Source: an uncultured Chloroflexia bacterium (GTDB taxonomy: Bacteria; Chloroflexota; Dehalococcoidia; UBA2979). Taken from it: DNA of 64,000 nt. The notes below the pieces were generated by a model. It searched no databases. It was not told the origin of the DNA and saw only the letters and a list, made by a program, of their open reading frames with translations. The translations under genes and the position numbers were made by a program. This document shows positions 16,158 through 57,058 of the stretch, one piece after another. The DNA lies in assembly GCA_963728205.1 (NCBI GenBank), contig CAVSIV010000006.1, positions 1,760,001 through 1,824,000 on the forward strand. The letters are read 5' to 3'. Within the stretch, counting starts at the first letter, position 1. Each line of letters starts with the position of its first letter.

Positions 16158-16223
16158 GGATGGGAGCAACCCCTGCCGCCGCACCGCGGCGCTGAGACCG
16201 ATCCGGAGCCGAGCCCCACCCCC

Positions 16224-18671
16224 ATGGCCAAGCGCACGAGCACCCCGCCACCCGAGGACACCGACGAGCGCATCGTCGACATCGACGTCGAGGAGGAGAT
16301 GCGCAGCGCCTTCCTCGAGTACTCCTACAGCGTCATCTACTCCCGCGCACTGCCCGACGCCCGGGACGGCCTGAAGCCGGTACAGCGACGGATCCTCTAC
16401 GGCATGAGCGAGCTCGGGCTACGGCCCGACCGGCCCCACGTCAAGTCCAGCCGCGTCGTGGGCGAGGTCATGGGCAAGTACCACCCGCACGGCGACCAGG
16501 CGATCTACGACACCCTCGTGCGGATGGCCCAGTCGTTCACGATGCGGCTCCCGCTCGTGGACGGCCACGGCAACTTCGGCTCCCTGGACGACGGCCCCGC
16601 GGCCTCGCGCTACACCGAGGCCCGGATGGCGCCCGCCGCGCTGCTCATGGTCGCCGGGCTCGACGAGGACACCGTCGACTTCGTCCCCAACTACGACGAC
16701 TCCCTCACCCAACCCGGTGTGCTGCCGGCGGCCTATCCCCAACCTCCTGGTCAACGGCGCGAGCGGGATCGCCGTGGGGATGGCCACGAACATGGCGCCG
16801 CACAACCTCGTCGAGGTGATCGGCGCCGCGCGCCACCTCATCGACCACCCGGACTGCTCGCTGGACGACCTCATGCGCTTCGTGCCCGGGGCCGGACCTG
16901 CCCGGCGGCGGCCGGATCGTCGGGCTCGACGGCGTCCGGGACGCCTACCTCACCGGTCGCGGCACGTTCCGGACGCGGGCGAGCGCACGGGTCGAGAAGC
17001 TCACCCCGCGCCGGATGGGCATCGTCATCACCGAGATGCCCTACCTCATCGGCCCCGAGAAGGTCATCGAGCGCGTGAAGACCCTCGTCCAGGGCAAGAA
17101 GCTGCAGGGCATCAGCGACGTCAAGGACCTCACCGACCGCAAGCACGGCATGCGGCTGGTGTTCGAGATCAAGAACGGCTTCAACCCCGACGCCGTCCTC
17201 GAGCAGCTCTACAAGCTGACCCCCCTCGAGGACTCGTTCGGCATCAACAACGTCGCCCTCGTCGACGGCCAGCCACGCACCCTGGGCCTGAAGGAGCTGC
17301 TGCGCACCTACGTCGACTTCCGCATCGACGTCGTCCGCCGCCGCACGGAGTTCCGCCTGGCCAGGCGGCGCGACCGGCTGCACCTCGTCGAGGGCCTCCT
17401 CATCGCGATCCTCGACATCGACGAGGTCATCCAGCTGATCCGGTCCTCCGACGACACGGCCGAGGCCAGGGCACGCCTCATCTCGGTGTTCGACCTGTCC
17501 ACGCTCCAGGCCGACTACATCCTCGAGCTGCAGCTGCGCCGCCTCACCAGGTTCTCCCGCATCGAGCTCGAGTCCGAGCGCGAGGAGCTCCAGCGCCAGA
17601 TCGAGCAGCTGCGAGGCCATCCTCGGCGACGAGCGGCTCCTGCGCCGCACCGTGTCCGACGAGCTCGCCGACGTCGCGAAGGCCCACGGGACCCCGCGCC
17701 GCACGGTCCTGCTGGAGTCGGCCGGCGCGGCGGCCACCTCGGCCACGCCCCTGGAGGTGAGTGACGACCCGTGCTGGGTGCTGCTCTCCTCGACCGGCCT
17801 GCTGGCCCGCACGTCCAGTGGCGACCCCGTGCCGAGCGAGGGCGAACCGCGCTCGCCACGACGCCATCGTCGGTGCCGTGCGCACCACGGCGCGAGGCGA
17901 GTTCGGGCTGCTGACCTCTCGCGGTCGGATGATCCGGATGTCGGCCCTCGAGCTCCCGGCGCTTCCGCCGCTGGGAGGCGCGCCCAGCCTGTCCGGCGGG
18001 GCGCCCCTGGCCGTCTACGTCGACCTCCCGGCCGGTGAGGAGCCCGTGACGATCGCCCCGCTCGATCCCGACGGGGCGGGCCTCGCCCTGGGCACCGCGC
18101 ACGGTGTCGTCAAGCGGGTCGTCCCCGACCACCCCGCGCGCTCGGACTGGGAGGTCGTCGTCGCTCAAGGACGGCGACCGCGTCGTCGGCGCCGCGAGCC
18201 TGCGCGACGGCTCGGAAGACCTCGTGTTCGTGACCTCGGACGCCCAGCTGCTCCGGTTCCCGGCCTCCGCCGTGCGGCCGCAGGGTCGCGCGGCCGGCGG
18301 CATGGCCGGCATCCGGCTCTCCCCCGGCGCCACCGCCATGTTCTTCGGCGCCCTCGAACCCGGCGACGACGCCCTGGTGGTCACCTCCAGCGGGTCCTCC
18401 GCCGCGCTGCCCGGGACCGAGCCGGGCTCGCTCAAGGTCACGCCGTTCGCCGACTACCCCGCCAAGGGCCGTGGCACCGGCGGGGTTCGCGCCCACCGAT
18501 TCCTGCGGGGCGAGGACGCCCTCGTGCTGGCCTGGGTCGGGCGGGCACCGGTGCGCGCCTCCGGCCCCGGTGGGGTCGCGGTGGAGCTTCCCGGAGGCGA
18601 CCGGCAAGCGCGACGGCTCGGGAACGGCGTACCCGGTGGTCATCACCGGCCTGTCCTCGCCCGTGTCCTGA
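16224..18671 (+). CDS. parC: DNA topoisomerase IV subunit A (GyrA/ParC family); about 6 frameshifts
   Basis: [25 protein letters not shown], catalytic [29 protein letters not shown]-terminal pinwheel repeats; not linked to a gyrB. Confidence 0.88.
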
Positions 18672-18747
18672 GGACGCCCGACAGCGCTGGAGCCAGGCGT
18701 GTTACTCAATCGTTACGGCCAACCTTCGCCATGTCGTTGCGCCGATG

Positions 18748-18763
18748 CGTAAACGCTTTTACG
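18748..18763. promoter_or_regulatory. Putative LacI-family operator CGTAAA-CGCT-TTTACG
   Basis: Inverted repeat with an AAACG core, 70 bp upstream of the sugar-binding protein start; a LacI gene lies in the same cluster. Confidence 0.6.
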
Positions 18764-18833
18764 TTTGGACACGGTTCCCTCATCGCCGAGGCCACATCCC
18801 GTCTCGGCGCGACCAGTGAAATGGAGGCGGGCA

Positions 18834-20216
18834 ATGGCCCTCAACTCAAGGCGCCGCTACGCGGCGTTGACCGGAGTCGTCGCGGTGGCCCTCACCGTCG
18901 GCGCCTGCGGCAGCAGCGACGACGACAGCGGCGGCGACAGCGGCGGCGACACAGCCGCATCAAGCACCATCGACTGCACGCCCTACGAGCAGTTCGGCGA
19001 CCTCTCGGGCACCGAGGTGAGCACGTACTCGAGCGTGGTCGCCCCCGAGGCCGACGCCTACGAAGCAGCGTGGAAGCCGTTCGAGGACTGCACGGGCGTG
19101 GACGTGAAGGGCGAGTGGTCCAAGGAGTTCGAAGCCCAGATCGTCGTGCGCGTCCAGTCCGGCAACCCGCCGGACATCGCGCTGTTCCCCCAGCCCGGCC
19201 TGCTCCAGACGGTCGTCAACGACACCGGCGCGGTGCTCCCGGTCTTCCCGGAGACCGAGGCCGTCGTCGACGAGAACTTCTCCGAGGACTGGAAGGCCTA
19301 CGGCACGGTCGACGGGACCTACTACGGGTTCCCGAACTCCTCGAACTCCAAGTCGTTCGTCTGGTACTCCCCCGGCGCCTTCGCCGACGCGGGCTACGAG
19401 ATCCCGACGACGTGGGAGGAGATGATCGCGCTCTCCGACCAGATCGTCGCGGACAACCCCGACGGCAGCGTCAAGCCGTGGTGCGCCGGCATCTCCTCCG
19501 GTGACGCGACCGGCTGGCCGGTCACGGACTGGATCGAGGACCAGATGCTCCGCGACCAGGGCGCGGACTACTACGACCAGTGGGTCAACCACGACGTCCC
19601 CTTCAACGCCGCTGAGTCCAAGGAGGTCTGGGACAAGGTCGGCACCGTCCTGCGCAACGAGGACTACGTGAACGGTGGCTTCGGCAACGTCCAGACCATC
19701 GCATCGACGACCTTCCAGGACGGCGGCCTGCCGATCCTCGACGGGTCCTGCTACATGTACAAGATGGCCTCGTTCTACGCGGCCAACTGGCCCGAGGGCA
19801 CCGACGTCTCCGAGAACGGTGAGGTCTTCGCCTTCTACTACCCGACGAACGAGGGCTCGACCGAGAAGCCGGTCCTCGTCGGCAGCGAGTTCATCGCCGC
19901 GTTCGACGAGCGCCCGGAGGTCAAGGCGTTCACGACGTTCATGGCCTCGGCCGACTACGCGAACGAGCGGGCCAAGCAGGGCTACGGGTTCGTCAGCGCG
20001 AACCTCAACCTCGACGTCAACAACGTCGACTCGCCGATCAGCAAGCTGGCGGCCGAGCAGTTCCAGGACCCGGGAGCGCTCATCCGCTTCGATGGTGCCG
20101 ACCTCATGCCCGGCGCCGTCGGTTCGGGTTCGTTCTGGAAAGAGGCGACCGCGTGGATCGCCGAGGGCAAGGACACCCAGGCGGTCCTCGACTCGGTCGA
20201 GCAGTCCTGGCCGTGA
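18834..20216 (+). CDS. Carbohydrate ABC transporter substrate-binding lipoprotein (AglE/alpha-glucoside-like)
   Basis: Lipobox LTVGAC; GNPPDIALFPQPGL; KSFVWY; PWCAGISSGDATGWP; RFDGADLMPGAVG. Confidence 0.88.
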   Translation: MALNSRRRYAALTGVVAVALTVGACGSSDDDSGGDSGGDTAASSTIDCTPYEQFGDLSGTEVSTYSSVVAPEADAYEAAWKPFEDCTGVDVKGEWSKEFEAQIVVRVQSGNPPDIALFPQPGLLQTVVNDTGAVLPVFPETEAVVDENFSEDWKAYGTVDGTYYGFPNSSNSKSFVWYSPGAFADAGYEIPTTWEEMIALSDQIVADNPDGSVKPWCAGISSGDATGWPVTDWIEDQMLRDQGADYYDQWVNHDVPFNAAESKEVWDKVGTVLRNEDYVNGGFGNVQTIASTTFQDGGLPILDGSCYMYKMASFYAANWPEGTDVSENGEVFAFYYPTNEGSTEKPVLVGSEFIAAFDERPEVKAFTTFMASADYANERAKQGYGFVSANLNLDVNNVDSPISKLAAEQFQDPGALIRFDGADLMPGAVGSGSFWKEATAWIAEGKDTQAVLDSVEQSWP

Positions 20217-20224
20217 TCCGGCCG

Positions 20225-20240
20225 CGTGACGCACGTCACA
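20225..20240. promoter_or_regulatory. CRP/GlxR-like site CGTGA-N6-TCACA
   Basis: CGTGA CGCACG TCACA, one mismatch to TGTGA-N6-TCACA, in the intergenic region before the permeases. Confidence 0.4.
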
Positions 20241-20258
20241 CGATGAAGTAACGTCGTT

Positions 20259-20289
20259 GCTGGGACCCTCGCTCCGCGAGGGTCCCAGC
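20259..20289 (+). terminator. Intercistronic stem-loop (perfect 14-bp stem)
   Basis: GCTGGGACCCTCGC-TCC-GCGAGGGTCCCAGC directly after the binding-protein gene. Confidence 0.7.
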
Positions 20290-20320
20290 GGCGAGTCCTA
20301 CTCGGCACTACTTCACAGAG

Positions 20321-21514
20321 GTGAGTCCCCTGTCTGACATCAAGACCCCAGACAAGGCTGACGCGTCGCGAAAAGACGCCGCAGCCAACCCGCGCAAAGC
20401 CCCGATCAGCATCAGCGCCATGGCTGTGGGCATCTTCATGATCCTCGTGTTCGTCGGGGTCGTGGGGCTCATCGCAGCGAGCTTCTTCAACGCCGTCCCG
20501 GAGATCACCTGGCCCTCCTTCCTCGTCGACGCCAACAACGCCGCCGAGAAGCTCGGCCTCATGGTGTTCGTCGTCGCGCTGTTCGTCGCCGTGATGGCGC
20601 TCCTGCTGTTCATGGTGGACAGCCGCAAGCGGGTCCCCAACTGGACCGTGGCGATGGCCTTCGTCGGGCCGGCGCTCGCCGCCCTGCTGCTGGGCCTCAT
20701 CTGGCCGGGCACCAGCACGCTCATCCAGTCGTTCTTCGGGCGCTCCCCGTGGTACGACACCGAACGCAGCGAGTTCGTCGGGTTCGACAACTTCGCGACG
20801 CTGTTCACCACCTCCGAGTTCCAGGTCGTCCTGCGGAACACGATGATCTGGGTCATCCTCGTCCCGATCGTCGCGGTCGCGCTCGGGCTCATCTACGCCG
20901 TCCTCATCGACCGGACGCGCGGCGAGGCACTCTCCAAGGGCCTGATCTTCCTCCCGATGGCGATCTCCCTCGTGGGCGCGTCGATCATCTGGAAGTTCGT
21001 CTACGAGTACCGCTCCCCCGCCCGGCCGCAGATCGGGTTGGCCAACCAGATCCTCGTGTGGATCGGGCTGGAGCCGTATCAGTTCCTCATCAACCTGCCA
21101 TGGAACACGATCTTCCTCATCGTCGTCATGGTCTGGATCCAGACCGGTTTCGCGATGACGATACTCTCAGCCGCCATCAAGGCGATCCCCGACGACATCG
21201 TCGAGGCAGCCCGCCTCGACGGTGTGTCCGGCGCCCGGATGTTCCGCTACGTCACCATCCCGAGCATCCGTCCCGCGTTGCTCGTGGTCTGGGTGACGAT
21301 CACGATGACGACCCTCAAGGTCTTCGACATCGTCCGGACGATGACCGGCGGCAACTTCCAGACCAGCGTGGTGGCGAACGAGTTCTACACGCAGAGTTTC
21401 CGGCAGTTCAACTTCGGCCTCGGCGCCGCGCTGGCCGTGCTGCTCTTCGTGATCGTCATCCCGGTGGTCGTCTACCAGGTGCGACAGCTTCGACTCTCGG
21501 AGGACATTCGATGA
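20321..21514 (+). CDS. Sugar ABC transporter permease
   Basis: Multiple TM segments; EAA loop EAARLDG; LKVFDIV. Confidence 0.9.
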   Translation: MSPLSDIKTPDKADASRKDAAANPRKAPISISAMAVGIFMILVFVGVVGLIAASFFNAVPEITWPSFLVDANNAAEKLGLMVFVVALFVAVMALLLFMVDSRKRVPNWTVAMAFVGPALAALLLGLIWPGTSTLIQSFFGRSPWYDTERSEFVGFDNFATLFTTSEFQVVLRNTMIWVILVPIVAVALGLIYAVLIDRTRGEALSKGLIFLPMAISLVGASIIWKFVYEYRSPARPQIGLANQILVWIGLEPYQFLINLPWNTIFLIVVMVWIQTGFAMTILSAAIKAIPDDIVEAARLDGVSGARMFRYVTIPSIRPALLVVWVTITMTTLKVFDIVRTMTGGNFQTSVVANEFYTQSFRQFNFGLGAALAVLLFVIVIPVVVYQVRQLRLSEDIR

Positions 21515-23540: not shown

Positions 23541-25669
23541 TCAGGCGTCGATCCGCTCCCGGTCCAGCGCGTTCGCCGAGGAGATGATGAAGTCCTTGCG
23601 GGGACCGACGTCGCCTCCCATGAGCAGCTCGAACACGGTCGCGGCCGAGTCGAGGTCGGCAGCGGTGACCTTGCGCAGCGTGCGGTGTCGCGGATCCATC
23701 GTCGTCTCGGCCAGCTGGTCGGCATCCATCTCCCCGAGGCCCTTGTAGCGCTGCAGGGGCTTGGTCTTGCGGCCCCGCTTGGCCAGCGCGGCCATCGTGC
23801 GACGCATCTCGGTCTCGGAGTAGGTGTAGAGGACCTCGTTCGGCCTTGCTCCCGGCATTGACCACCTCGATCCGGTGCAGCGGCGGCACGGCGGCGTAGA
23901 CCCGCCCGGCCTCGACGAGCGGTCGCATGTAGCGGAAGAACAGGGTCAGCAGCAGGGTGCGGATGTGGGCTCCGTCGACATCGGCGTCGGTCATGATGAT
24001 GACCTTGCCGTAGCGCGCCGCATCGAGGTCGAAGCTGCGCCCCGACCCCGCGCCGATGACCTGGATGATCGCGGCGCACTCGGCGTTGCCGAGCATGTCG
24101 GTCACCGACGCCTTCTGCACGTTGAGGATCTTGCCGCGGATCGGCAGGAGTGCCTGGTGGTCGCTGCTGCGCGCCAGCTTGGCGGTGCCCAGGGCGCTGT
24201 CGCCCTCGACGATGAACAGTTCGGTGCGCTCGACGTCGTTGCTGCGGCAGTCGGCCAGCTTGGCCGGGAGCGAGGAGGACTCCAGCGCGGTCTTGCGGCG
24301 CTGCGTCTCCTTGTGCATCCGCGCGCTGATCCGCGACTTCATCTCCGCGGTGACCTTCTCGAGCAGCACCGCCGCCTGCTGCTTCTCCCCGCGCCTGGTC
24401 GAGGAGAGCCGCGCCGTGAGCTCCTTCTCCACCACCCGGGCCACGATCGCGCGGACGGCCGAGGTGCCGAGCACCTCCTTGGTCTGCCCCTCGAACTGCG
24501 GCTCCGCCAGGCGAACGGTGACGACGGCCGTGAGGCCGGCCATCGCGTCGTCCTTCTCCAACTTGTCGTTGCCGACCTTGAGGCGACGTGCGTTGGCCTC
24601 GAGCTGCTTCCTCAGCACCTTGAGCAGGGCCTGGTCGAAGCCGGCCAGGTGGGTGCCGCCCTTGGGGGTGGCGATGATGTTGACGAACGAGGACACCGTG
24701 GTGTCGTAGCCGGTGCCCCACCGCACCGCGACGTCGACACCGCACTCACGCTCGACCTCGGTGGGGGTCATGTGCCCGCGGCTGTCGAGGACGGGGACCG
24801 TCTCGGTGAAGGTGCCCGAGCCCTGGAGCCGCCACACGTCGGTCACGGGGGGGTCGGGCGCCAGGAACTCACAGAACTCCGAGATGCCGCCGTCGTGGAG
24901 GAAGGTCTCCTCCACCGGGTCGGGCGCCCCGCTCGTCGCGGATGACGATGGTCAGTCCGGGGACGAGGAACGAGGTCTGCCGGGCCCGGCCGAGCAGACC
25001 CTCGAGGTCGAAACCGGCGTCCTTGAGGAAGATCTGCCGGTCGGCCCAGTAGCGCACCCGGGTGCCTGTGACGCCACGGCGGGTCTTCCCCACGACGACG
25101 AGCTCGCTGTTGTCGGTGTAGGCCGTGAACTCGTGCTCCGGGTCCTTCCTCCCCTGCGCGCCCGCGACGTCGGAGAACACGCCCGGCTCGCCGCGCCGGA
25201 AGCTCATCGCCCAGGTCTTGCCACCCCGGTCGACCTCGACGTCGAGGCGGGAGGACAGCGCGTTGACCACGGAGGCGCCGACGCCGTGCAGGCCGCCGGA
25301 TGCCGTGTAGGACCCGCCCCCGAACTTCCCGCCCGCGTGCAGCCGGGTGTAGACGAGCTCGACCCCCGTGAGGCCGGTGCGCGGCTCGATGTCGACCGGA
25401 ACCCCGCGCCCGTTGTCGCGGACCTCGACCGAGCCGTCATCCTGGAGGATGACCTCGATGTGGTCGCAGTGACCCCCCAGGGCCTCGTCGACGGAGTTGT
25501 CGATGATCTCCCACAGGCAGTGCATGACACCCCGGGAGTCCGTGGACCCGATGTACATGCCCGGCCGCTTGCGGACCGCCTCGAGCCCCTCGAGGACCTG
25601 GAGGTGGTGCGCGGTGTAGTCGGTCGCGGACTTGCTGGTCGCGGTCTTCCGGGCGGTGGGACTGGGCAC
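23541..25669 (-). CDS. parE: DNA topoisomerase IV subunit B (GyrB/ParE family); frameshifts near 24915 and 23845
   Basis: LEGLEAVRKRPGMYIG, EIIDNSVDE, SGGLHGVG, VEGDSA, PIRGKILN, DADVDGAHI, QRYKGLGEM. Confidence 0.9.
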
Positions 25670-25906
25670 ATCCGGCAGCGTATCCGGCGGCTGCGACGGC
25701 TCCGCGCAGGCGCACCGCACGCGCTCACGCCACCAGGTGGTCCCGACCCGGCCCAGGTCACGATCCGGACATGACCGGGACCACAAGGGTGAACAGTGCA
25801 CGGCGGGAAGCATCTGCCGTGATTGACTGTTGCTATCAACCGCTGCCCGATCCGGGCCGCACCCCGTATGACGTGCTTGAACCTTGAGCGAGCCGAGGAG
25901 GCCGAC

Positions 25907-26122
25907 GTGAACGCCGCACTGGCACCCGCCCTGACCGCCACGGACCGATGCGACCGATGCAGCGCGCAGGCCTACGTCCGCGCGACGCTGCACGCCGGTG
26001 GCGAGCTGTTCTTCTGTGCCCACCACGGGCGGGAGCACACCCCCGCACTGGTCGGCCTGGCCGAGATCCACGACGAGAGCGAGCGACTCATGGAGTCGAC
26101 GTCGGCCGGAGACCACGGCTGA
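25907..26122 (+). CDS. Small Zn-ribbon-like protein (DUF7455-like)
   Basis: LTATDRCDRCSAQAYV...GELFFCAHH; conserved actinobacterial gene divergent from parE; GAGGAGG RBS. Confidence 0.8.
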   Translation: MNAALAPALTATDRCDRCSAQAYVRATLHAGGELFFCAHHGREHTPALVGLAEIHDESERLMESTSAGDHG

Positions 26123-26123
26123 G

Positions 26124-26618
26124 GTGGATGCCCTCGCCGACGACGTCGGCGTGATCGTTCCGACCCTGCTCGTCCTCGTCGGGCTCATCGGCATCGTCGT
26201 GCCGGTGCTCCCGGGTCTCCTGCTCGTCCTGGGCGGGGTCCTGCTCTGGGCGGGAATGGATGGGTCCGCCACGGCGTGGACCATCTTCGCGATCAGCGTG
26301 CTCCTCGCTGCGGCCGGTTTCGCGCTGCAGTACCTCGTCCCCGGCAGGCGGATGCGTCAGGCAGGGGTCTCCAACTCCACCCTCGTCCTCGCGGTGGTCA
26401 TCGCGATCATCGGCTTCTTCGTCATCCCCGTGGTCGGGGCGATCATCGGGTTCGTCCTGGGGATCTACGTCGTGGAGCTCGGCCGGAGCAAGGACCGGTC
26501 CCATGCCTGGGTGCGCACCAAGCACGCCCTGATCGCGGTCCTGCAGAGCGTCGGGATCGAGCTGCTCGCCGGGCTCGGGATCGCCGGCGTCTACGTCGTC
26601 GGGCTCACCGTCACCTGA
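26124..26618 (+). CDS. DUF456 family membrane protein
   Basis: GLIGIVVPVLPG, GFFVIPVVG...GFVLGIY, SVGIEL. Confidence 0.8.
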   Translation: MDALADDVGVIVPTLLVLVGLIGIVVPVLPGLLLVLGGVLLWAGMDGSATAWTIFAISVLLAAAGFALQYLVPGRRMRQAGVSNSTLVLAVVIAIIGFFVIPVVGAIIGFVLGIYVVELGRSKDRSHAWVRTKHALIAVLQSVGIELLAGLGIAGVYVVGLTVT

Positions 26619-27170: not shown

Positions 27171-28428
27171 TCAGGATATGTCGCGATCGGGTCGGGCGGT
27201 AGTCGATGTGTCACGTGAGATGAGACTCGCCGGTCGAACCGACCCCGACCCGAACCGTGCCCTGGCCCTGTCGACCGCCTTGTCGGCGTCGCGCCACCCG
27301 TGTTCCGGCTCCCCGATGACTCCCTGGATCGGGGCGACGCGTGCCTCGACGAGCTTGTCGAGGCGCACCCCGACGAGGCGGATCCGGGCGCGCTGGAGCC
27401 CCAGCGCGTCGAAGAGCCCCACCGCCGCCTCGTGGATGGCGCGGCCGCTGTCGGTCGGCTCCCTCAGGGTCCGTGACCGCGTGATCGTCGTGAAGTCGCT
27501 GAACCGCACCCGCAGCGTCACCGTGCGACCCGTGAGCCCGGCGGCGCGCATCCTCGCGGCGGTGCGTTCACTCAGGGCCAGGAGGCGCCGGTGGATCTCC
27601 TGCGGCGTCGTCGATGTCGAACTCGAACGTCTCGTCGCTCCCGATGCTCTTCTCGCGGTGCTCACGCTCGACCGGTCGCGGGTCGCGGCCCCAGGACAGG
27701 TCGTGCAGATGAGTTCCGGTGGCATCTCCGAGAGCTCGGACCAGCGTCGTGACGGGAGTGTGGGCGATGTCGGCGACGGTGCGCAGCCCGAGCCGGACCA
27801 GCGCCTCCTCGGTGCGCTCCCCCACTCCCCAGAGGGCACCGACCGGCAGCTGCTGCACGAAGGGGACGACCTCGTCGCGGGGGACGACGACCATCCCGTC
27901 GGGCTTGGCGAGGCCGGAGGCCAGCTTGGCGACGAACTTCGTCGAGGCCACCCCGACCGAGCAGGTGATGCCCTGCTCGTCGTGGACGGTGTCCCGGATC
28001 TGTTGCCCGATGACCGCGGGAGGGCCGAGCCGACGGACGGCGCCGGAGACGTCGAGGAAGGCCTCGTCGAGCGAGAGCGGCTCGATGACCGGCGTCACGG
28101 CACGGAAGGTCTCCATGACGGCGGCGGAGATCGCGGCATACAGCCGGTGCTCGGGAGGCAGCACCGTCGCCTGAGGACACAGCCGGCGTGCCCGTGCCAT
28201 CGGCATGGCAGAGGTCACCCCGAAGCGCCGGGCCTCGTAGGTCGCCGAGAGCACGACTCCCCGGTTGCCGCCCCCGATGATGACCGGCGTGCCGACGAGG
28301 TCAGGGTGCGAGAGCAGCGTGGCGTTGGCGTAGAAGGCGTCCATGTCGACGTGCAGCACCGTGCAGCCGGTGTCGTCCGGAGGGTCGGTGGCGGCCCTCT
28401 CCGGGAGGGCGAACTGACGGCGACTCAT
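27171..28428 (-). CDS. dinB: DNA polymerase IV (frameshift near 27600)
   Basis: LHVDMDAFYA, SATYEARRFGV, catalytic PLSLDEAFLD, KLASGLAKPDG, ALWGVG, little finger VRFSDFTTITRSRT. Confidence 0.93.
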
Positions 28429-28443
28429 CGTCGGGGCGGAGGG

Positions 28444-29226
28444 TCAGCCCCGGGTCGCGAGGACGTGGCGCACACTGCCCAGCGCTCCGAGGAGCGGGTG
28501 ATCGGGGTGCCGGCTCGCGAGGTCCTCGAGCTCGAGGAGGGCGACCCGGTCGGCCTCGGAGTCGACGAGCGCGGAGGGCACGAGGTCGCTGAAGATCCGC
28601 GCTCCGTGGCTGTCGAACGGCTGGAGTCCGTGGGCCGCGAGCAGGTCGAGGATGGTCGCCTCGTCGAACCGCCGCGGCGCGGGGTCGTCCTCGCCCCACC
28701 GGCCGTCGGGCCGGGTGAGGACGGCGCTGGCCCGCTCGAACTGGCCGGCCAGCGCACGGGCCAGGGCGGCGTGCAGCCGCTGTGCGACGACGAGGGAGAG
28801 GGTTCCCCCCGGTGCCAGGACGTCGGCCACCCCCGCCAGCGCGGCATCGGGGTCGTCGACGACCTCCAACGTGCCGTGCAGGCAGACGATGTCGTATGCC
28901 GGTGGGCTGTCGCCGCCGAGGTCGCGCACCGAGTCGGTGTCGCCCTGGACGGCATGGACCCGGTCCTCGACGCCTCGCTCGGCGGCCCGCCGGCGAAGGG
29001 AGGCGAGGGCGTCCGGGCTCGGGTCGACGACGGTGACGTCGTGTCCGGCCTCGGCGAGCGGGACGGCGATGCCTCCGGTGCCACCCCCGAGGTCGAGGAC
29101 GAGCAGCGCCCGCCCCAACCGGGTGCTCCGGTCCAGGGCGAGCTCCTCGAGAGCCGCCCACACCGCGGCGGTGCGCAACCCGGCAGGGGGTCCCGGCGTG
29201 CGGGTGCGACCTCGCTCGTCGGCCAC
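28444..29226 (-). CDS. Class I SAM-dependent methyltransferase
   Basis: VLDLGGGTG, VVDPSPDALA, CLHGTLEVVD; usual dinB neighbour in actinobacteria. Confidence 0.85.
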   Translation of the reverse strand: MADERGRTRTPGPPAGLRTAAVWAALEELALDRSTRLGRALLVLDLGGGTGGIAVPLAEAGHDVTVVDPSPDALASLRRRAAERGVEDRVHAVQGDTDSVRDLGGDSPPAYDIVCLHGTLEVVDDPDAALAGVADVLAPGGTLSLVVAQRLHAALARALAGQFERASAVLTRPDGRWGEDDPAPRRFDEATILDLLAAHGLQPFDSHGARIFSDLVPSALVDSEADRVALLELEDLASRHPDHPLLGALGSVRHVLATRG

Positions 29227-29268
29227 GGCTGCTCCTGGGAAGGTCGGGAAGGTGCTGTCAGAGCCACC

Positions 29269-32200
29269 CTAGTGTCCTGAGCTGCCCGGGCTGGCGTGCC
29301 ACAGCTTGCGTGACGGCATGGCGGGGGCGGAGGTGCTCGCCGCCCCGTCGAGACCCGGTGCACCCCTGCCGGAGCGGGGATCGGCGCCCGGTGGCCGGGT
29401 GTCGGCATAGGGGGACTGTCGAAAGCCCGAGGCGTGCACGAGCACCCGGCGGCCGGTGCGCTGGTCCCGCTCTCGCGCCGCCTCCGCGGTGGCCTCCGCG
29501 CGGGCCCGGGCGTCCTCCTCCCCGGCCTCGACCGCCGCCCACACCCCGGCCGCGCCCCCGGTCTGCCACGCGTCCCAGAGCGAGGCGAGCTCCCAGGCGC
29601 CGGTTGCCCGGATCGACACCCCGCGGTCACCGGTGCGGCGCACGACACCACGGACGAGGAGGAGCCAGGAGTGGAACACCACCCCGGCGTAGGGCCCCTG
29701 GACGTCTTCGAAGAAGGTGCAGTCCGAGGGTCCGGTGCCGTCGTCGAGGGTGAGGAAGACGACCCGTCGGCCCGAGCGCACCGGCGGGGTCTGGGTGGCC
29801 ACCTTGACCCCCGCGACCCACACCTCGCTGCGGCTGCGGGATGTGAGCAGGTCACGGCTGCGGGTCACCCCCAGGGCACGCAGCATCGGCTCGTAGAACT
29901 CCACGACGTGTGCGGAGACGTCGAGCCCGAGCACGTCGAGCTCGGCACGCACCCGCTCCGGGCCGGTCATCTCCGGCAGGCCGGTGCCGGAGGTGAGCCG
30001 TGGCCGGTCGCCGAGGTCGAGGGTGAGCTGCACCTGCTGGTCGCGGGCGGGGACGACCTCGCGGGCCGCCTGCGACTGGGCCGCGGCCCGCTCGCGGACG
30101 TCGACCGGCGAGCTCCCGACCTCGCGCTGCGGGGAGATGCTCGGGACGGCGAGGCGCCGGCTGCTGCGCGCCGGGCCTGCTCCCCCACGCTCCCAGCGCT
30201 CGAGCTCGGCGACGTGCAGCAGGAGGTCGCGGCGGGTGACCCGGCCCCGGCGCCCCAGCCCGGAGGACCCGCCCATCGCGTGCAGCGCGTCGAACGCACC
30301 GGCGAGGACGAGCCGCTCGGTCACCGGTCGGCTCACCCGGGCCCGGGTCCAGAAGTCACCGAGGTCGGCGTAGGGCTGGCCCGCGACGATGCGCGCGACC
30401 TCGGCGGCACTGATCCCCTTGACGTCGGCGAGGGACAGCCGGATGCCGTAGGGCTGGTGGGGGCGCCGCCATCCCGGCACCTCACCCGTCGAGTGAACAG
30501 AACACGCCGCCTCGAGCGGCCCGGACGCGGCGTGTTCTGTTCTCTCGACGGGGTCGGCGGGGTCAGCGGGGTCAGCAGGACCGTCGACGGGCTCGACACG
30601 GTAGGTGTCACCGGAGGCGTTGACGTCCAGGCCCAGGACGGGGATCCCGAAGGACCGGACGTCGTCGAGGATGAGCCGCTTGGGGTACATCCCCGGGTCG
30701 TGGGTGAGGACGCCGGCGAGAAAGGCCGCGGGGTGGTGGGTCTTGAGCCATGCCGAGTGGAACGTCGGGAGGGCGAACGCCGCGGCGTGGGCCTTGCAGA
30801 AGCCGAACGACGCGAAGGAGCGCAGGACCTCCCAGATCGCGTCGCGGTCCCCGGCGGAGTAGCCACGCGCCTTCGCGGCCGGTCGCCACCACGCCTCGAC
30901 CTGCTCCTGCCCCGCGGGGGTGCCCATGGTGCGGCGCACCTCGTCGGCCTGGGCCAGGCTCACCCCGGTCGTCTCGGCGACGATGAGGAGGACCTGCTCG
31001 TGGAAGACGACGACGCCCTCGGTCTCCTCCAGCGCCGGGACCAGGCTCGGGTGCAGGAAGCGCCGCTCGCTCCACCCGTGGCGGCTGTTGAGGAACGGGG
31101 TGATCATGTCGGACTTCACGGGCCCGGGCCGGAAGAGCGAGATGTCGACGATGAGGTCGTCGAACGCGGCGGGGCCGAGCTTGCCCACGAGCTCGCGCTG
31201 ACCGGGGCTCTCGATCTGGAACATCCCCAGGGTGCGGGTCGTGCGAATCAGCTCGTAGGTCGCGGCGTCGTCCCGGGGCACCTGGGCCTCGTCGTCGAGG
31301 TCGACCCGCTCCCCGGTCACCCGCTCGACCTCGGCGACGGCATGGGCCATCGCCGACTGCATCCGGATGCCGAGGACGTCGAGCTTGAGGAAGCCGAGGG
31401 TCTCGACGTCGTCCTTGTCGAACTGGCTCATCGGGAACCCCATCCAGCTCGCCTCCACGGGGGTGCGGTCGAGCAGGCCGGAGTTGGACAGCACGATCCC
31501 GCAGGGGTGCAGGGCGATGTGCCGGGGCAGCCCGTCGAGGGCCTCGACGAGGTCGAAGAAGGCCGCGAGCCGGGGGCTGTCGAGGCCACGGCTGCGCAGC
31601 TCGGGAAGGTCGGCGATGGCGTGCCGGGCGTCCTTGGCCCGGATGTGCGGGAACGCCTTGGCGATCTCGTCGATCTCCACCGGTGGCAGTCCCAGCGCGG
31701 CACCGACGTCGCGGACGGCGTGCCGCACCTTGTAGGTGTCCATCATCGACACGCAGGTGACCCGGTCGCCGCCGAAGCGCTCGAGCACCGCCTCGTAGAT
31801 CTCGGTGCGGCGGGCGGACTCGACGTCGACGTCGATGTCGGGGAGCTCGGCCCGCAGCGGGGAGCAGAACCGCTCCATGAGCAGCCGGTGCCGGATCGGG
31901 TCCACCCCGCTGATGCCCAGGAGGTGGTTGACCAGGCTGCCGGCCCCCGATCCGCGGGCCGCGACCCGCACTCCGCGGGCCCGGATCAGGTCGGTGACCT
32001 CGGCGACGGTGAGGAAGTAGGTGGGGTAGCCCAGGGCCCGCACGACGGCGAGCTCCTCGTCGAGCCGGTCCAGGACGACCTGGTGCTCGGACTCCCGGGC
32101 CGCGGGGTAGCGCCACCCGACCGCGGCTCGACAGCGCTGCGCGAGGACCACCATCGGGTCCTCGTCCGGGGCGATGCCGAGGATCTCGGCCTCCGGGAGG

Positions 32201-33288
32201 TGCACGGCACCGATGCCGAGGTCGGTGCCGGACTGCTGGGCGCACTCCTCGCCGAGGAGGGCCGTCATCGCGAGGAGCCGCTGCGAGCGGGCCCGGTCGC
32301 CACCGGTGACCTCGAGGGCTCGGGTGCGCATCGTCGCCGCGTCGGCCAGGTGGCCCGCGTCGGTGACCCGGTCGAGGTGGCGGGAGTCGAGCACCACGAG
32401 GCGCCTCGCGGCGTCGAGCAGGTCGACGGTGCGCACCTGGTCGGGGTCGGCGTGCCGGACCGCGGCGGAGAGGACCGCCGGCACCCCTGCCTCGTCGGCG
32501 AGCCCCAGCAACCGGGCCGCGTGCGAGCGACAGCCGGGAGTGCCCTCGGGACCGCCCTGCAGGACGACCTCGACCGCCAGGCCGTCGCGGGGCAGGAGCG
32601 CGCGCCAGGACCGCAGCAGGTGCTGCGCGAGCTCGCGGTGCCCGGCGAGCAGGGCCCGGCCGACATCGGAGTCGGGGCCGAGAAGCACGAGCAGCCGGCT
32701 CCCCTCCTCGTCGGGTCGAGGTGACACCGCCCGCGGTTCCGTGCAGGAGCACCTCGACCCCGCCGCGTCCTCTCCCGGTCGAGGTGACACCGCCCGCGGT
32801 TCCGCGCAGGAGCACCTCGACCCCGCCGCACCTCCGCGAGCCCATCGCGCGAGGAGGTCGGGGGTGGTCACCGGGGTGCCGCGCTCACCCCGCAGGTGGG
32901 TCTCGGTGACGAGCCGGCACAGCGCGGCCCACCCGGCACCCGCGGCGACTCCCCCGGCCCGGCCCCGGGCGAGCACGGTGGCTCGCGGTCGCCTCGGGTC
33001 GACCAGGGCACCGCCGCGCACCGGGGCGCGGGTGCGCGAGGTCGAGAGGGGCCTCGACGATGACGTCGGCGCCTCGACGGCGAGGTCGACGCCGAGCACG
33101 GGAGCGATCCCTGCCCGGTCGCAGGCCGTGGCGAACCGCACCGCGCCGTAGAGCCCGTCACGGTCGGTGAGCGCGAGGGCGCCCTGCCCCTGGGCCGCGG
33201 CACGCTCGACGAGGTCCTCGGGCATGGATGCGCCGTAGCGCATCGAGAACCCCGACGCGACGTGGAGGTGGGTGAAGTCGTCCATCAC
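29269..33288 (-). CDS. dnaE2: Error-prone DNA polymerase III alpha subunit (DnaE2/ImuC)
   Basis: PHP HLHVASGFS/ALTDRDG; RGSGAGS; catalytic PDIDVDVE; KLDVLG; FGFCKAHA; OB fold QTPPVRSGRRVVFLTLDD; C-terminal LWHASPGS; SOS box upstream. Confidence 0.92.
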   Translation of the reverse strand: MMDDFTHLHVASGFSMRYGASMPEDLVERAAAQGQGALALTDRDGLYGAVRFATACDRAGIAPVLGVDLAVEAPTSSSRPLSTSRTRAPVRGGALVDPRRPRATVLARGRAGGVAAGAGWAALCRLVTETHLRGERGTPVTTPDLLARWARGGAAGSRCSCAEPRAVSPRPGEDAAGSRCSCTEPRAVSPRPDEEGSRLLVLLGPDSDVGRALLAGHRELAQHLLRSWRALLPRDGLAVEVVLQGGPEGTPGCRSHAARLLGLADEAGVPAVLSAAVRHADPDQVRTVDLLDAARRLVVLDSRHLDRVTDAGHLADAATMRTRALEVTGGDRARSQRLLAMTALLGEECAQQSGTDLGIGAVHLPEAEILGIAPDEDPMVVLAQRCRAAVGWRYPAARESEHQVVLDRLDEELAVVRALGYPTYFLTVAEVTDLIRARGVRVAARGSGAGSLVNHLLGISGVDPIRHRLLMERFCSPLRAELPDIDVDVESARRTEIYEAVLERFGGDRVTCVSMMDTYKVRHAVRDVGAALGLPPVEIDEIAKAFPHIRAKDARHAIADLPELRSRGLDSPRLAAFFDLVEALDGLPRHIALHPCGIVLSNSGLLDRTPVEASWMGFPMSQFDKDDVETLGFLKLDVLGIRMQSAMAHAVAEVERVTGERVDLDDEAQVPRDDAATYELIRTTRTLGMFQIESPGQRELVGKLGPAAFDDLIVDISLFRPGPVKSDMITPFLNSRHGWSERRFLHPSLVPALEETEGVVVFHEQVLLIVAETTGVSLAQADEVRRTMGTPAGQEQVEAWWRPAAKARGYSAGDRDAIWEVLRSFASFGFCKAHAAAFALPTFHSAWLKTHHPAAFLAGVLTHDPGMYPKRLILDDVRSFGIPVLGLDVNASGDTYRVEPVDGPADPADPADPVERTEHAASGPLEAACSVHSTGEVPGWRRPHQPYGIRLSLADVKGISAAEVARIVAGQPYADLGDFWTRARVSRPVTERLVLAGAFDALHAMGGSSGLGRRGRVTRRDLLLHVAELERWERGGAGPARSSRRLAVPSISPQREVGSSPVDVRERAAAQSQAAREVVPARDQQVQLTLDLGDRPRLTSGTGLPEMTGPERVRAELDVLGLDVSAHVVEFYEPMLRALGVTRSRDLLTSRSRSEVWVAGVKVATQTPPVRSGRRVVFLTLDDGTGPSDCTFFEDVQGPYAGVVFHSWLLLVRGVVRRTGDRGVSIRATGAWELASLWDAWQTGGAAGVWAAVEAGEEDARARAEATAEAARERDQRTGRRVLVHASGFRQSPYADTRPPGADPRSGRGAPGLDGAASTSAPAMPSRKLWHASPGSSGH
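30485..30552. repeat. Palindromic element inside dnaE2 (26-bp arms with 1 mismatch, 16-nt loop)
   Basis: CCCGTCGAGTGAACAGAACACGCCGC ... GCGGCGTGTTCTGTTCTCTCGACGGG. Confidence 0.9.
32713..32829. repeat. Two tandem 63-bp units inside dnaE2, each bounded by GGTCGAGGTG...CACCTCGACC
   Basis: Units start at 32714 and 32777; translated as the 21-aa repeat AAGSRCSC(A/T)EPRAVSPRP(G/D)E(D/E). Confidence 0.9.
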
Positions 33289-33291
33289 CGC

Positions 33292-33711
33292 TCAGGCCGT
33301 GCGGACGGGAACCAGCCGCCGCGGTCGGTGTGCCGAGGGAAGGCCCAACCGGGCCGCCGCGAGGTCCACGAAGGTCTCGGCGTCACGGAGCAGGTCGTCG
33401 GCCTCGCGGGCGCTGACCCGCACCAGCCCCGTCTCGACGCCGACACGCTGCCCGGTGACCGCGGAGAACCGCTCCGACCACTCGGTGAGCTCGGGCGCGA
33501 CGCGCGAGGTCAGCGACCAGACGTCGTGCGGGCCGGTGCGACTGGCCGCGGGGGCCGTGGCCGACCCGGCGGCGACCAGCGCGGCGGCGGCGCGCAGCGC
33601 GGCCAGCGAGGCGGCGAGGTAGCGCTCGGAGGCGAGCGAGGCGGTGTACCCGCCCGTGATCGCCTCACGCGATCGGTCCAGGAGGTCCAGGGTGGTGGCA
33701 GCGTGACTCAT
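33292..33711 (-). CDS. SAV_6107-family HEPN domain protein
   Basis: ERYLAASLAALRAAAALV...VWSL..RVAPELTEW..F...READDLLRDAETF. Confidence 0.8.
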   Translation of the reverse strand: MSHAATTLDLLDRSREAITGGYTASLASERYLAASLAALRAAAALVAAGSATAPAASRTGPHDVWSLTSRVAPELTEWSERFSAVTGQRVGVETGLVRVSAREADDLLRDAETFVDLAAARLGLPSAHRPRRLVPVRTA

Positions 33712-33721
33712 CGGGTCTCCT

Positions 33722-34045
33722 CTAGTCGTGGGCTCGCAGGAGGAGCCAGTGGTCGTCGTCGCGGCCGAGGTCGAAGACCCCCGCCGGGCCCGAGGGAGGA
33801 GCCGCCTCCACCCGCCAGACCTCGCGCTGGGTGCTCGGGACACCGGTGGAGGGCTGGTCACCCACCTCACGCCACCACGCCCGGCGTTCCTGCCACGAGG
33901 AGAGCACGGCGCACACGGTGTAGCGGCGCCCGCGCCAGACGAAGTCCCGCGGTGCCCCGCCGTCGGCAGTGGATGCCGCAGCGGGCCTCCCGGCTCCCGC
34001 ACCGGAGCCACGGACCGTGACGGGTTCGTCGTGCCGACGCACCAT
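33722..34045 (-). CDS. DUF6504 family protein
   Basis: MVRRHDEPVTV...PRDFVWRGRRYTV..VLSSWQE..AWW...EVWRVEA...GVFDL...WLLLRAHD; GGAGG RBS. Confidence 0.8.
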   Translation of the reverse strand: MVRRHDEPVTVRGSGAGAGRPAAASTADGGAPRDFVWRGRRYTVCAVLSSWQERRAWWREVGDQPSTGVPSTQREVWRVEAAPPSGPAGVFDLGRDDDHWLLLRAHD

Positions 34046-34112
34046 GGCGACCTCCGGCGAGCAGGGCCGACCGGCCGGCGACCCTGCGGAGGCGCCGGCA
34101 ACCGGCCGAACG

Positions 34113-34146
34113 GTGATCTGGTCGAACACGTGTTCGACCAGATCAC
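34113..34146. promoter_or_regulatory. LexA (SOS) box TCGAAC-ACGT-GTTCGA (34122-34137) within a perfect 34-bp palindrome
   Basis: GTGATCTGGTCGAACACGTGTTCGACCAGATCAC matches the actinobacterial consensus TCGAAC-N4-GTTCGA exactly. Confidence 0.9.
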
Positions 34147-34147
34147 T

Positions 34148-34169
34148 ACTGTAGCCCGCCCCCCCGACA
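34148..34169 (-). promoter_or_regulatory. PafBC / RecA-NDp promoter TGTCGG-N10-TACAGT driving DUF6504-HEPN-dnaE2
   Basis: Minus strand reads TGTCGG GGGGGCGGGC TACAGT, an exact match to TGTCGG-N10-TA-N3-T. Confidence 0.8.
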
Positions 34170-54346: not shown

Positions 54347-55700
54347 CCCGGCTCCTTCCGCGGGTCACCTCTCTGCGGTCCGAGTCCTGCCGTGGGTGCT
54401 CGGCACGGCCTGGCTGGCATGGTTCGGCGTCCTCCAGTGGAGCGTCGTGCGGTTTCGGGTCCCCATCGTGGTGACCCTCACGCTGTGCACCGTGCTGCTC
54501 GCCTGGTGGCTCGTGCGACGGGTGGAGGTGCCGCTGCCTCGCCGGCTGGCGCCGCTCGTGCTGCTGGGGTCGATCGCGGTCGGCGTCACGGTGCCCCTGT
54601 TCACCTACCTTCGGGGCGGCTGGGTGACCCTCGCCCTGGCACTCATCACCGTCGGCGGCCTGGTCTGCGCCGCCCTCCTCCTGAACCCGCACCCGTGGGC
54701 GGCGCGAGCCGCGTTCGGGGTCGCGGTCCTGACCCACGTCTCCCTCTCCGTCGTGGCGATCATCGGTGACCCCGCCCCGAGGATCGACGTCTGGGTCGTC
54801 CTCCAGCAGGGCTCCGACGCCCTCGGCCGGGGCGAGAACCTCTACACCCAGCAATGGACCGACTCCCCCGGTGTCCAGGACTTCTTCCCCTACCTCCCCT
54901 GGATGGCTGTGCTCGTCGCTCCGGCCCGGTGGCTGGCCGGCGACGTCCGGTGGGCCCTCCTGCTGTGGTCGGTCATCCTGTACGTCGGGCTCTGGGCCCT
55001 CGCGCGCGGAAGGGTCGAGCGGGCCGCCGCGGTCACCGCCGTCCTCGTGCTCGCGCCGGGCAGCCTGACCCAGATCGACCAGTCGTGGACCGAGCCGGTG
55101 CTGGCGGCCGCGCTCGTCTGGTGGGCCGTGCTGGTCCGGCGTGGTCACGCGTGGTGGGCGGTCGTCCCCCTCGCCCTGGCGTGCGCGAGCAAGCAACACC
55201 TCGCGCTGCTCGCCCCGGTGCTGCTCGCCTGGCGACCGTTCGGGGTGGCCCGCACGCTGGTCACCGGCGGGGTCACCGCCCTGCTCCTGCTCCCCTGGGT
55301 GCTCGCCGACCCGGGCGCCTTCGTCGGCGACACGGTGACCACGCTGCTGGAGTTCCATCCGATCCGGTTCGCGAACACGTGGTACCTGTACTTCCTCAAC
55401 GAGTGGGGCGTCACCCTGCCGTTCGCCGTCACCGCGACGGTCATGGTGGGGGTCGTCGCGGTGGCGACATATGCCGTGTGGCGACGCCAACCACCGCTCG
55501 CCGAGGTGCTGCGCTGGCTCGCGCTGGTGCTCGCAGTGGCGAACCTCGTCAACAAGCAGGCGTTCTACAACCAGTACTGGTTGGTCGGGGCTCTCGTCGC
55601 GGCGTCCCTCGCGCTGCCCCGCGAACCGGACCGGGGGCCGGACCGGGGGCTAGGCCTCAGGAGGCAAGAGAGCGCAGGTGCTCCCGCCACTCCCCGGTGA
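54339..55700 (+). CDS. Polytopic membrane protein, GT-C/GT87-like glycosyltransferase
   Basis: ~11 TM helices; RIDVW...GENLY...FPYLP; SKQH; NKQAFYNQY. Confidence 0.6.
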   Translation: MADPAPSAGHLSAVRVLPWVLGTAWLAWFGVLQWSVVRFRVPIVVTLTLCTVLLAWWLVRRVEVPLPRRLAPLVLLGSIAVGVTVPLFTYLRGGWVTLALALITVGGLVCAALLLNPHPWAARAAFGVAVLTHVSLSVVAIIGDPAPRIDVWVVLQQGSDALGRGENLYTQQWTDSPGVQDFFPYLPWMAVLVAPARWLAGDVRWALLLWSVILYVGLWALARGRVERAAAVTAVLVLAPGSLTQIDQSWTEPVLAAALVWWAVLVRRGHAWWAVVPLALACASKQHLALLAPVLLAWRPFGVARTLVTGGVTALLLLPWVLADPGAFVGDTVTTLLEFHPIRFANTWYLYFLNEWGVTLPFAVTATVMVGVVAVATYAVWRRQPPLAEVLRWLALVLAVANLVNKQAFYNQYWLVGALVAASLALPREPDRGPDRGLGLRRQESAGAPATPR

Positions 55701-56953: not shown

Positions 56954-57058
56954 TCGCGCAGCCCGGGGGGCCGTGGTGGGCGCGCGCCCGAGCCGTGAAC
57001 GGTCGATGGGCGGGAGCGGTGGGCACACCCCATCGTAGGAAGGCCCGGCAGGGCGCCG

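Follow-up and report, generated by a model that had tools for sequence, protein, structure and literature searches.

Gene organization of the locus

In this study, a group of five genes was analysed in a 64,000-nucleotide stretch of contig CAVSIV010000006.1 (assembly GCA_963728205.1, positions 1,760,001 to 1,824,000), hereafter called the window, which has about 72% G+C. The ORF (open reading frame) list together with Pfam and NCBIfam searches places the five genes, co-oriented, on the minus strand between positions 34169 and 27171. They encode a small protein of the DUF6504 family, a SAV_6107-type HEPN protein, the error-prone polymerase DnaE2, a class I methyltransferase dependent on S-adenosylmethionine (SAM), and the Y-family polymerase DinB (Table 1). 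The intergenic gaps, in this order, are 10, 3, 42 and 15 nt. No terminator-like site was found between the genes; both of the sites that were detected fall within dnaE2. An earlier reading of the DNA (the original prediction) had described the same five co-oriented genes, with gaps of 10 and 3 bp on the two sides of the HEPN gene, and both points were confirmed. It had also let the DUF6504 gene begin at 34169, which was not borne out. The start is the ATG at 34045, where the Pfam match begins, where the N-termini of all aligned relatives (M-V/A-R-R) have their equivalent position, and which is preceded at 6 nt by GGAGG. Positions 34046-34169 are promoter, operator and leader and lie outside the coding region.

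The canonical mutasome genes were not found beside dnaE2. Searches of the window by tblastn with five ImuB and three ImuA queries, all proteobacterial, gave no match, and dinB, which carries catalytic motifs, is the only gene of the window with an IMS domain. In agreement with the original prediction, the window thus holds no canonical ImuA'-ImuB-DnaE2 cassette, in which ImuA' and a full-length ImuB would be encoded near dnaE2. Neither imuA nor imuB was found in 80 related loci of up to 20 kb.

Table 1. Genes, predicted regulatory sites and other features of the window
Feature	Position	Strand	Description
imuB-C (Pfam DUF6504)	34045-33722	-	107 aa; PF20114, E 2.4e-19
SAV_6107-type HEPN gene	33711-33292	-	139 aa; HEPN_SAV_6107 (PF18726), E 2e-24
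dnaE2, DnaE2B-like error-prone C-family polymerase	33288-29269	-	1339 aa; lineage-specific insertions; PHP, DNA_pol3_alpha, finger, HHH_6, OB (Pfam)
Class I SAM-dependent methyltransferase, CmoM/SmtA-like	29226-28444	-	260 aa; Pfam Methyltransf_12/25/11
dinB, Y-family polymerase	28428-27171	-	IMS core and thumb; IMS_C in a second frame
RecA-NDp-like promoter motif, TGTCGGGG-N8-TACAGT (whole: TGTCGGGGGGGCGGGCTACAGT)	34169-34148	-	exact fit to the consensus
Predicted LexA (SOS) box, TCGAACACGTGTTCGA	34122-34137	.	perfect palindrome just downstream of the likely -10 element
DnaE2 candidate clamp-binding motif QLxLDLG	30008-30028		aa 1087-1093
DnaE2 C-terminal KLWHASPGSSGH	29272-29307
Tandem duplication in DnaE2 PHP region	~32700-32840		aa ~150-197
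RecA-NDp-like motif	57388-57409	-	upstream of RNase_T ORF
RecA-NDp-like motif	57475-57496	+	upstream of RNase_T ORF
ORF with RNase_T exonuclease domain	57039-59252		possible further damage-inducible gene
Topoisomerase IV/gyrase A-like gene	16158-17761	+	split over 2-3 frames
GyrB/ParE-like gene	23544-26356	-	split over 2-3 frames
Type I restriction enzyme R subunit	291-2723	+
ORF with eCIS_core domain	55660-56742	-
Lower-GC stretch	18700-21500		G+C 0.65-0.70 vs ~0.72; ABC-transporter permease

DUF6504 and the ImuB C-terminal domain

The DUF6504 family consists of small standalone proteins: 215 of the 259 candidates matched with E <= 0.001, and the best 150 of 946 representative clusters were all 87-319 aa long. 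Its conserved pattern is P..F.WRG..Y.V … W.ERR.WW … VWRVEA … G.GV[FY]DL … W.L.R..D. The Pfam model was compared with five proteins annotated as ImuB, all encoded in imuA-imuB-dnaE2 operons of proteobacterial plasmids, and it matched the extreme C-terminus of four of them. The match to the Roseateles ImuB (residues 430-503 of 507; E 3.8e-7, 30.7 bits) exceeds the curated cut-off of 24.2; those to the proteins of Shinella (427-500 of 504, E 0.0018), Sphingomonas (399-454 of 475, E 0.0033) and Aliiroseovarius (414-479 of 492, E 0.058) were weaker, and the ImuB of Burkholderia glumae gave no match. When the DUF6504 alignment was compared by hhalign with the five ImuB C-termini together, the motifs aligned in order (E 6.6e-4, 50 columns); with one single ImuB the alignment was weaker (E 0.031).

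The AlphaFold2 model of the DUF6504 protein is all-beta with six strands (predicted local distance difference test score, pLDDT, 77; predicted template modelling score, pTM, 0.67). No relative was found in the PDB by profile sequence search, nor by fold search at E <= 0.001. This agrees with the literature account of the ImuB C-terminal domain (ImuB-C), described as a beta-barrel of novel fold in the available part of PMC12926913; conserved features of ImuB-C given in PMC3765255, likewise available in part, are a C-terminal tryptophan and basic residues. Sequence comparison and the predicted model therefore indicate that DUF6504 is ImuB-C in the form of a standalone protein, and here it is encoded beside dnaE2. 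The original prediction had regarded DUF6504 as an uncharacterised substitute for ImuB; since PF20114 matches four of the five ImuB C-termini, the protein is ImuB-C itself. Fused forms were also sought. Among 8000 scored candidates, five of at least 276 aa came into question, which is weak evidence: none carries a Y-family domain, and they resemble mis-called or fused ORFs.

Features and phylogeny of DnaE2

The dnaE2 product scores 592 bits against the NCBIfam model for the error-prone polymerase and 579 bits against that for DnaE1, both under the cut-off. Its DnaE-type domains were recognized by Pfam and its polymerase motifs PDIDVD and KLDVLG are intact, in line with the DnaE2 cassette originally proposed. 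The metal ligands of the PHP domain are substituted, with SMRYG, TDRDG and GVDLA in place of SMLDG, TDHGN and GIEAY in DnaE1. In the PHP region, a segment of about 22 aa (GSRCSC.EPRAVSPRP) occurs twice in tandem; the region is rich in insertions and deletions in the relatives, where the alignment of proteins of about 1300 aa extends over 1754 columns. QLxLDLG is invariant in all 34 aligned DnaE2 sequences. It fits what we take to be the clamp-binding consensus and makes a candidate for clamp binding. Conservation extends to the C-terminal KLWHASPGSSGH, which is also found in Nonomuraea; it is missing from the plasmid copies of Arthrobacter and Agreia and from DnaE2 proteins linked to ImuA and ImuB.

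A quick maximum-likelihood tree of 19 sequences joined the window DnaE2 with a copy from a Streptomyces plasmid and with the copies that are linked to DUF6504 in Arthrobacter, Agreia and Nonomuraea (SH-aLRT 99), separate from five ImuA/ImuB-linked DnaE2 and two DnaE1. By sequence, the polymerase site of the enzyme is intact and its PHP site degenerate, and the enzyme would thus belong to a DnaE2 clade unlinked to ImuA/ImuB, as seen in a tree that holds no actinobacterial DnaE2 linked to ImuA'/ImuB. This grouping bears on the possibility that an imuA'-imuB pair elsewhere in the genome runs DnaE2 and that the standalone ImuB-C is redundant or regulatory. In Mycobacterium tuberculosis, dnaE2 is unlinked to imuA'-imuB, which provides a precedent, and only 64 kb of the genome are in view. 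The window DnaE2, in contrast, groups with the DUF6504-linked copies, and we regard such a remote imuA'-imuB pair as quite unlikely.

In the Streptomyces avidinii plasmid (L094:7456-8709), the gene after dnaE encodes a Y-family homologue whose match to the catalytic IMS domain covers just its last part (profile positions 82-147). Judged from its sequence, this homologue fits the published inactive partner of the scDinB2 type. DUF6504 is absent at this plasmid dnaE locus.

Conservation of the gene order

Species-representative genomes were scanned with an alignment of 36 DUF6504 sequences. At least 598 stretches and at least 249 confirmed relatives were obtained, of which the best 80 were kept. 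The named loci all belong to the Intrasporangiaceae/Dermatophilaceae: Ornithinibacter, Oryzobacter, Fodinibacter, Phycicoccus, Nostocoides/Tetrasphaera, Janibacter, Pedococcus, Arsenicicoccus and Knoellia. Identity of DUF6504 across the related loci ranges from 38% to 100%. Counts were restricted to loci that extend far enough downstream, and a gene was counted if its strand and order agreed. imuB-C and dnaE2 have the HEPN gene between them in 74 of 74 loci, dnaE2 is present in 74/74, the methyltransferase gene stands between dnaE2 and dinB in 67/67, dinB follows in 66/66 and the DUF3040 gene in 60/61. The five-gene order is therefore met again in all related loci whose length allows it to be seen, and is more than chance, as the original prediction had anticipated for the linkage of these genes. 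Median gaps in the relatives are 17, 8, 54 and 18 nt (n = 76, 66, 67 and 66), as estimated from heuristic gene calls that include outliers.

The scan gave a single family, so the distribution beyond the Intrasporangiaceae rests on four records of a plasmid collection that also includes some whole chromosomes. On plasmids of Arthrobacter sp. YA7-1 (L081) and Agreia sp. COWG (L085), DUF6504 is encoded directly upstream of a related dnaE2, which means that the ImuB-C/DnaE2 module is also plasmid-borne. HEPN, methyltransferase and DinB genes are absent beside these two pairs; both are flanked by a gene for an SOS-response-associated peptidase (SRAP), and one of the plasmids was typed as conjugative. 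In the chromosome of Nonomuraea gerenzanensis, DUF6504 also lies directly upstream of dnaE2, with no HEPN gene between. In the fourth record, a Citricoccus plasmid, no dnaE was found within 7 kb after DUF6504.

Promoter and operator

Two predicted regulatory sites precede imuB-C. The RecA-NDp-like motif fits TGTCGGKG-N8-TANNNT exactly, which we take to be the consensus of a RecA-independent damage promoter linked to PafBC; its TACAGT is likely the -10 element. The palindrome at 34122-34137 fits TCGAAC-N4-GTTCGA, presumably the actinobacterial LexA-box consensus, perfectly. It is the only match with at most one mismatch in the 64 kb, where 0.16 are expected; at least one such match occurred in 15 of 100 shuffles. 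Among the related loci, 78 of 79 have a LexA box with at most two mismatches in the 260 nt upstream of the DUF6504 gene, and a promoter-like motif with at most one mismatch was found in 49 of 79. At the loose threshold of two mismatches, LexA-like boxes also occur within the cassette in 15 of 67 loci. The cassette is thus predicted to belong to the LexA (SOS) regulon, with an operator at its promoter, and the two sites lend support to the damage regulation that had been proposed for it.

RecA-NDp-like motifs with at most one mismatch number three in the window, where 0.61 are expected. The other two lie just upstream of an ORF with an RNase_T exonuclease domain, which may be a further damage-inducible gene.

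HEPN protein

The HEPN protein scores 86.4 bits against PF18726, well above the cut-off of 27.2, and AlphaFold2 models it as a bundle of helices (pLDDT 90). In the PDB, the closest folds belong to HEPN proteins, at weak E-values (2hsb, E 0.096, probability 0.99, TM-score 0.51-0.55). It is thus a HEPN_SAV_6107 protein by profile score, with a HEPN-like helical fold predicted by the model. The family is large, with at least 2952 proteins at E <= 0.001. It appears as 'HEPN-M (SAV_6107)' in one table of Anantharaman et al. 2013 (PMC3710099), which in its available part gives neither a gene context nor an Rx4-6H motif. The protein of the window is alike in its score above the Pfam cut-off, its helical HEPN-like fold, its actinobacterial occurrence and its lack of Rx4-6H; it differs from that table entry in having a context, as its gene is embedded in a predicted mutasome operon.

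The R-x(4-6)-H motif was found neither in the protein nor among the invariant columns of its alignment, which makes RNase activity unlikely. This bears on a reading in which DUF6504 and HEPN are unrelated to the polymerase and make up a toxin-antitoxin-like pair or a defence pair. According to the available part of PMC3710099, RNase toxins that have a small partner upstream are common among HEPN proteins. Here, there is neither the catalytic motif, without which the family is also listed in that source, nor an MNT partner; the neighbours are ImuB-C and DnaE2. The upstream gene encodes ImuB-C, which is paired with dnaE2 elsewhere without HEPN, and the pair is under the control of a predicted LexA box. 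A toxin-antitoxin pair is therefore highly improbable and was rejected for lack of the Rx4-6H motif and of an MNT partner.

With the HEPN proteins of the window and of Nonomuraea as tblastn queries, the only HEPN_SAV_6107 match in the plasmid collection was that of Nonomuraea itself, whose gene lies 5.7 Mb from its own DUF6504-dnaE2 pair and adjoins a bldD-like gene. Two LexA-like boxes, with one mismatch each, stand about 270-320 nt before the likely start of this gene (NZ_LT559118.1, L083:8458-8513); 0.36 are expected in 18 kb, and two or more occurred in 11 of 200 shuffles. From this single observation, HEPN may itself be an SOS gene. Its absence from other ImuB-C/DnaE2 pairs means that HEPN is not a general part of such systems. 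The partnership of HEPN with DUF6504 and DnaE2 that had been postulated is therefore not general: the pairs of Arthrobacter, Agreia and Nonomuraea have no intervening HEPN gene, and in Nonomuraea the gene is unlinked.

Methyltransferase and DinB

The nearest solved structure to the methyltransferase is CmoM (8joz, E 2e-18). Its score of 83 bits against the NCBIfam CmoM model is far under the cut-off of 366, and it falls in broadly distributed actinobacterial clusters. No tie to DNA was found among the Pfam, NCBIfam, PDB and cluster results. The methyltransferase is more probably a passenger of the operon.

The dinB gene of the window retains the catalytic motifs DMDAFY and SLDE. It is split into 28428-27568, which encodes the catalytic core and thumb, and a little-finger (IMS_C) frame that ends at 27171; alignment with three related loci (L001, L002, L023) revealed an extra C near 27604. 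The active dinB of the original prediction was thus right as to the motifs and wrong as to an intact frame. The gene is a single ORF in 64 of the 67 related loci that hold both parts and is split in three; 13 loci provide no data. In the species-level relative L001, whose alignment over 17.4 kb shows 98.9% identity and 23 gap openings, dinB is one ORF of 418 aa. Two more genes of the window, the topoisomerase IV/gyrase A-like and the GyrB/ParE-like one, are likewise spread over two or three frames each. Split genes and the 23 gap openings suggest an indel-rich assembly, and the dinB frameshift is taken as a probable assembly indel, a real pseudogene being the alternative.

The DinB tail PIQG[VL][IL]..GWRDA.RAVDRA..RFG.G.VRPA.L is conserved in the relatives. 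Its best alignment was obtained with residues 14-27 of E. coli RecA (ALGQIEKQFGKGSI), the N-terminal oligomerisation motif, and is weak (hhalign, E 0.078, 14 columns). A profile of the tail gave no match in the PDB, and a search of Pfam gave no match to DUF4113.

Other features of the window

The operon is flanked upstream by a divergent YbaK-like gene, followed by a hydrolase gene and MTHFR, and downstream by a gene of the DUF3040/SCO2097 family. Further away are a gene for the R subunit of a type I restriction enzyme and an ORF whose product has an eCIS_core domain. A stretch of lower G+C with an ABC-transporter permease stands between the two topoisomerase genes and may have been acquired.

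Discussion

DnaE2 mutasomes produce damage-induced mutations, and in mycobacteria these include drug-resistance mutations. The canonical system consists of ImuA', ImuB and DnaE2, and the locus described here was originally proposed to be an undescribed system without the first two. This proposal is right in its core, a DnaE2 system with no ImuA'/ImuB in the window, and the class has already been described computationally. As far as the available parts of the papers go, Aravind et al. (2013, PMC3765255) defined ImuB-C and reported solo ImuB-C in DnaE2 operons, with or without DinB; Timinskas and Venclovas (2019, PMC6511836) described ImuA-less variants with standalone ImuB-C and a RecA N-terminal (RecA-NT) motif on Y-family polymerases; and Timinskas et al. 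(NAR 2026, PMC12926913) split DnaE2 into groups A, B and X, with DnaE2B in genomes without ImuA or ImuB. The last of these also defines two modules restricted to actinobacteria, DnaE2B-PolY-[ImuB-C]-RecA in Tessaracoccus lapidicaptus and DnaE2B-[ImuB-C] in Arthrobacter alpinus, where PolY is the Y-family polymerase. The AlphaFold3 models of these modules have ipTM (interface pTM) values of about 0.84 and about 0.89, respectively, and ImuB-C is modelled onto the PHP domain of DnaE2. The literature search returned comparative genomics and AlphaFold models of the ImuA'/ImuB-less versions and no experimental test of them.

The locus resembles the T. lapidicaptus module (VEP41449, VEP41450, VEP41451) in having a standalone ImuB-C upstream of a DnaE2 unlinked to ImuA/ImuB, in its actinobacterial origin and in predicted SOS-type regulation; a RecA-NT-like tail on PolY may be a further common feature. 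It differs by the inserted HEPN and methyltransferase genes and by the frameshift of dinB in the window; the accessions of the T. lapidicaptus ImuB-C, DnaE2 and PolY, as given in the available part of the source, are consecutive and leave no room for extra genes. With the DnaE2B-[ImuB-C] loci of Arthrobacter alpinus (ALV45565/ALV45564), YA7-1, Agreia and Nonomuraea, it shares an ImuB-C gene immediately upstream of a related DnaE2, which is 46.9-49.7% identical to the Nonomuraea and Arthrobacter copies. Those loci, in contrast, have no HEPN, adjacent DinB or methyltransferase gene, Arthrobacter and Agreia have an SRAP gene, and the DnaE2 copies of these two are without the KLWHASPGSSG tail. The canonical ImuA'-ImuB-DnaE2 system, as in M. 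tuberculosis or on the Shinella plasmid (L087), has an SOS-inducible error-prone DnaE2, as is predicted for the locus, and, like the locus, ImuB-C, the predicted DnaE2-binding element. Unlike that system, the present locus has no ImuA', a DnaE2 of another clade, and a separate DinB with intact catalytic motifs where ImuB has a dead polymerase domain.

The five genes thus probably form a LexA-repressed operon, possibly with a RecA-independent promoter as well, that belongs to the predicted DnaE2B-PolY-[ImuB-C]-RecA class of mutasomes. By extrapolation from AlphaFold models that were published for homologous systems, DNA damage would derepress the operon, the ImuB-C beta-barrel would bind DnaE2's PHP domain, and DinB would serve as the Y-family module, whose C-terminal RecA-NT-like motif would recruit RecA in place of ImuA'. 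Contact with the clamp may be made by DinB, by the invariant QLxLDLG of DnaE2, or by both. DnaE2, with its degenerate PHP proofreading site, would then extend across lesions and give rise to induced mutations. The genes of HEPN and the CmoM-like methyltransferase would be lineage-specific and co-transcribed with the mutasome genes. In the weakest step of the scheme, the non-catalytic HEPN may assist or regulate ImuB-C/DnaE2 as a partner.

Several observations weigh against this assignment. The DnaE2B label rests on a partial comparison, as the tree contains no actinobacterial DnaE2 linked to ImuA'/ImuB, and the absence of imuA'/imuB rests on the 64 kb of the window and the 20-kb loci. The hhalign probability for DUF6504 against ImuB-C is 27%, and the RecA-NT assignment of the DinB tail is weak (E 0.078 over 14 columns, with no PDB match). 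If the dinB frameshift were real, the strain would be left with only DnaE2 and ImuB-C. HEPN is dispensable elsewhere, being absent from three DUF6504-dnaE2 pairs. Finally, the 80 loci are the best of at least 249 relatives and come from one family, so shared ancestry may explain part of the conservation.

The original proposal, in which DUF6504 and HEPN, two uncharacterised proteins, jointly assume the roles of ImuA' and ImuB in an undescribed mutasome, can be reconsidered on this basis. The window contains no ImuA'/ImuB, the genes are tightly spaced and their linkage is conserved, and the literature search found no paper with 'DUF6504' and none that pairs 'HEPN' with 'dnaE2'; neither 'HEPN' nor 'DUF6504' was met in the available parts of PMC3765255, PMC6511836 and PMC12926913 or in the portion of the latter's supplement at hand. 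However, DUF6504 is ImuB-C, ImuB-C/DnaE2 systems without ImuA/ImuB have been published, the published models put RecA and no small protein in the place of ImuA, and three other actinobacteria have DUF6504-dnaE2 pairs without HEPN. The proposal is therefore refuted in part by the ImuB-C identity of DUF6504, and a joint role of the two proteins is improbable. What was not found in print is a HEPN gene between imuB-C and dnaE2 or a methyltransferase gene between dnaE2 and dinB.

HEPN and the methyltransferase may be co-transcribed passengers, with SOS or housekeeping functions, while the machine consists of ImuB-C, DnaE2, DinB and RecA only. The large size of the HEPN_SAV_6107 family, the remote Nonomuraea HEPN gene with two LexA-like boxes of its own, the consecutive accessions of the T. 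lapidicaptus module and the resemblance of the methyltransferase to a tRNA-modifying enzyme all favor this explanation, to which we give slightly less than an even chance. On the other hand, HEPN is encoded between two proteins that are predicted to bind each other, with gaps of only 10 and 3 nt, and this position is kept in all 74 loci, down to 38% identity of DUF6504. Placement of a gene between those of binding partners is typical of subunits of a complex, though it is no proof. A bolder explanation is that SAV_6107-type HEPN proteins belong to the SOS regulon and that, in the Intrasporangiaceae, one of them has been fixed in the ImuA'/ImuB-less DnaE2 mutasome as its third small subunit or as a gatekeeper. 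HEPN, translated between ImuB-C and DnaE2, would then control the assembly or access of the error-prone polymerase. It is suggested by the invariant position in the 74 operons and by the LexA-like boxes before the Nonomuraea homologue, and we consider it rather unlikely.

In sum, a whole actinobacterial family keeps an ImuA'/ImuB-less DnaE2 system as one predicted operon with a putative LexA box, and two conserved genes, those of HEPN and the methyltransferase, are added to the published schemes. Should HEPN prove to be a passenger, this would be an ordinary case of the published class. If HEPN is a subunit or regulator, a family that is widespread and uncharacterised would gain its first function, and induced mutagenesis a new control point.

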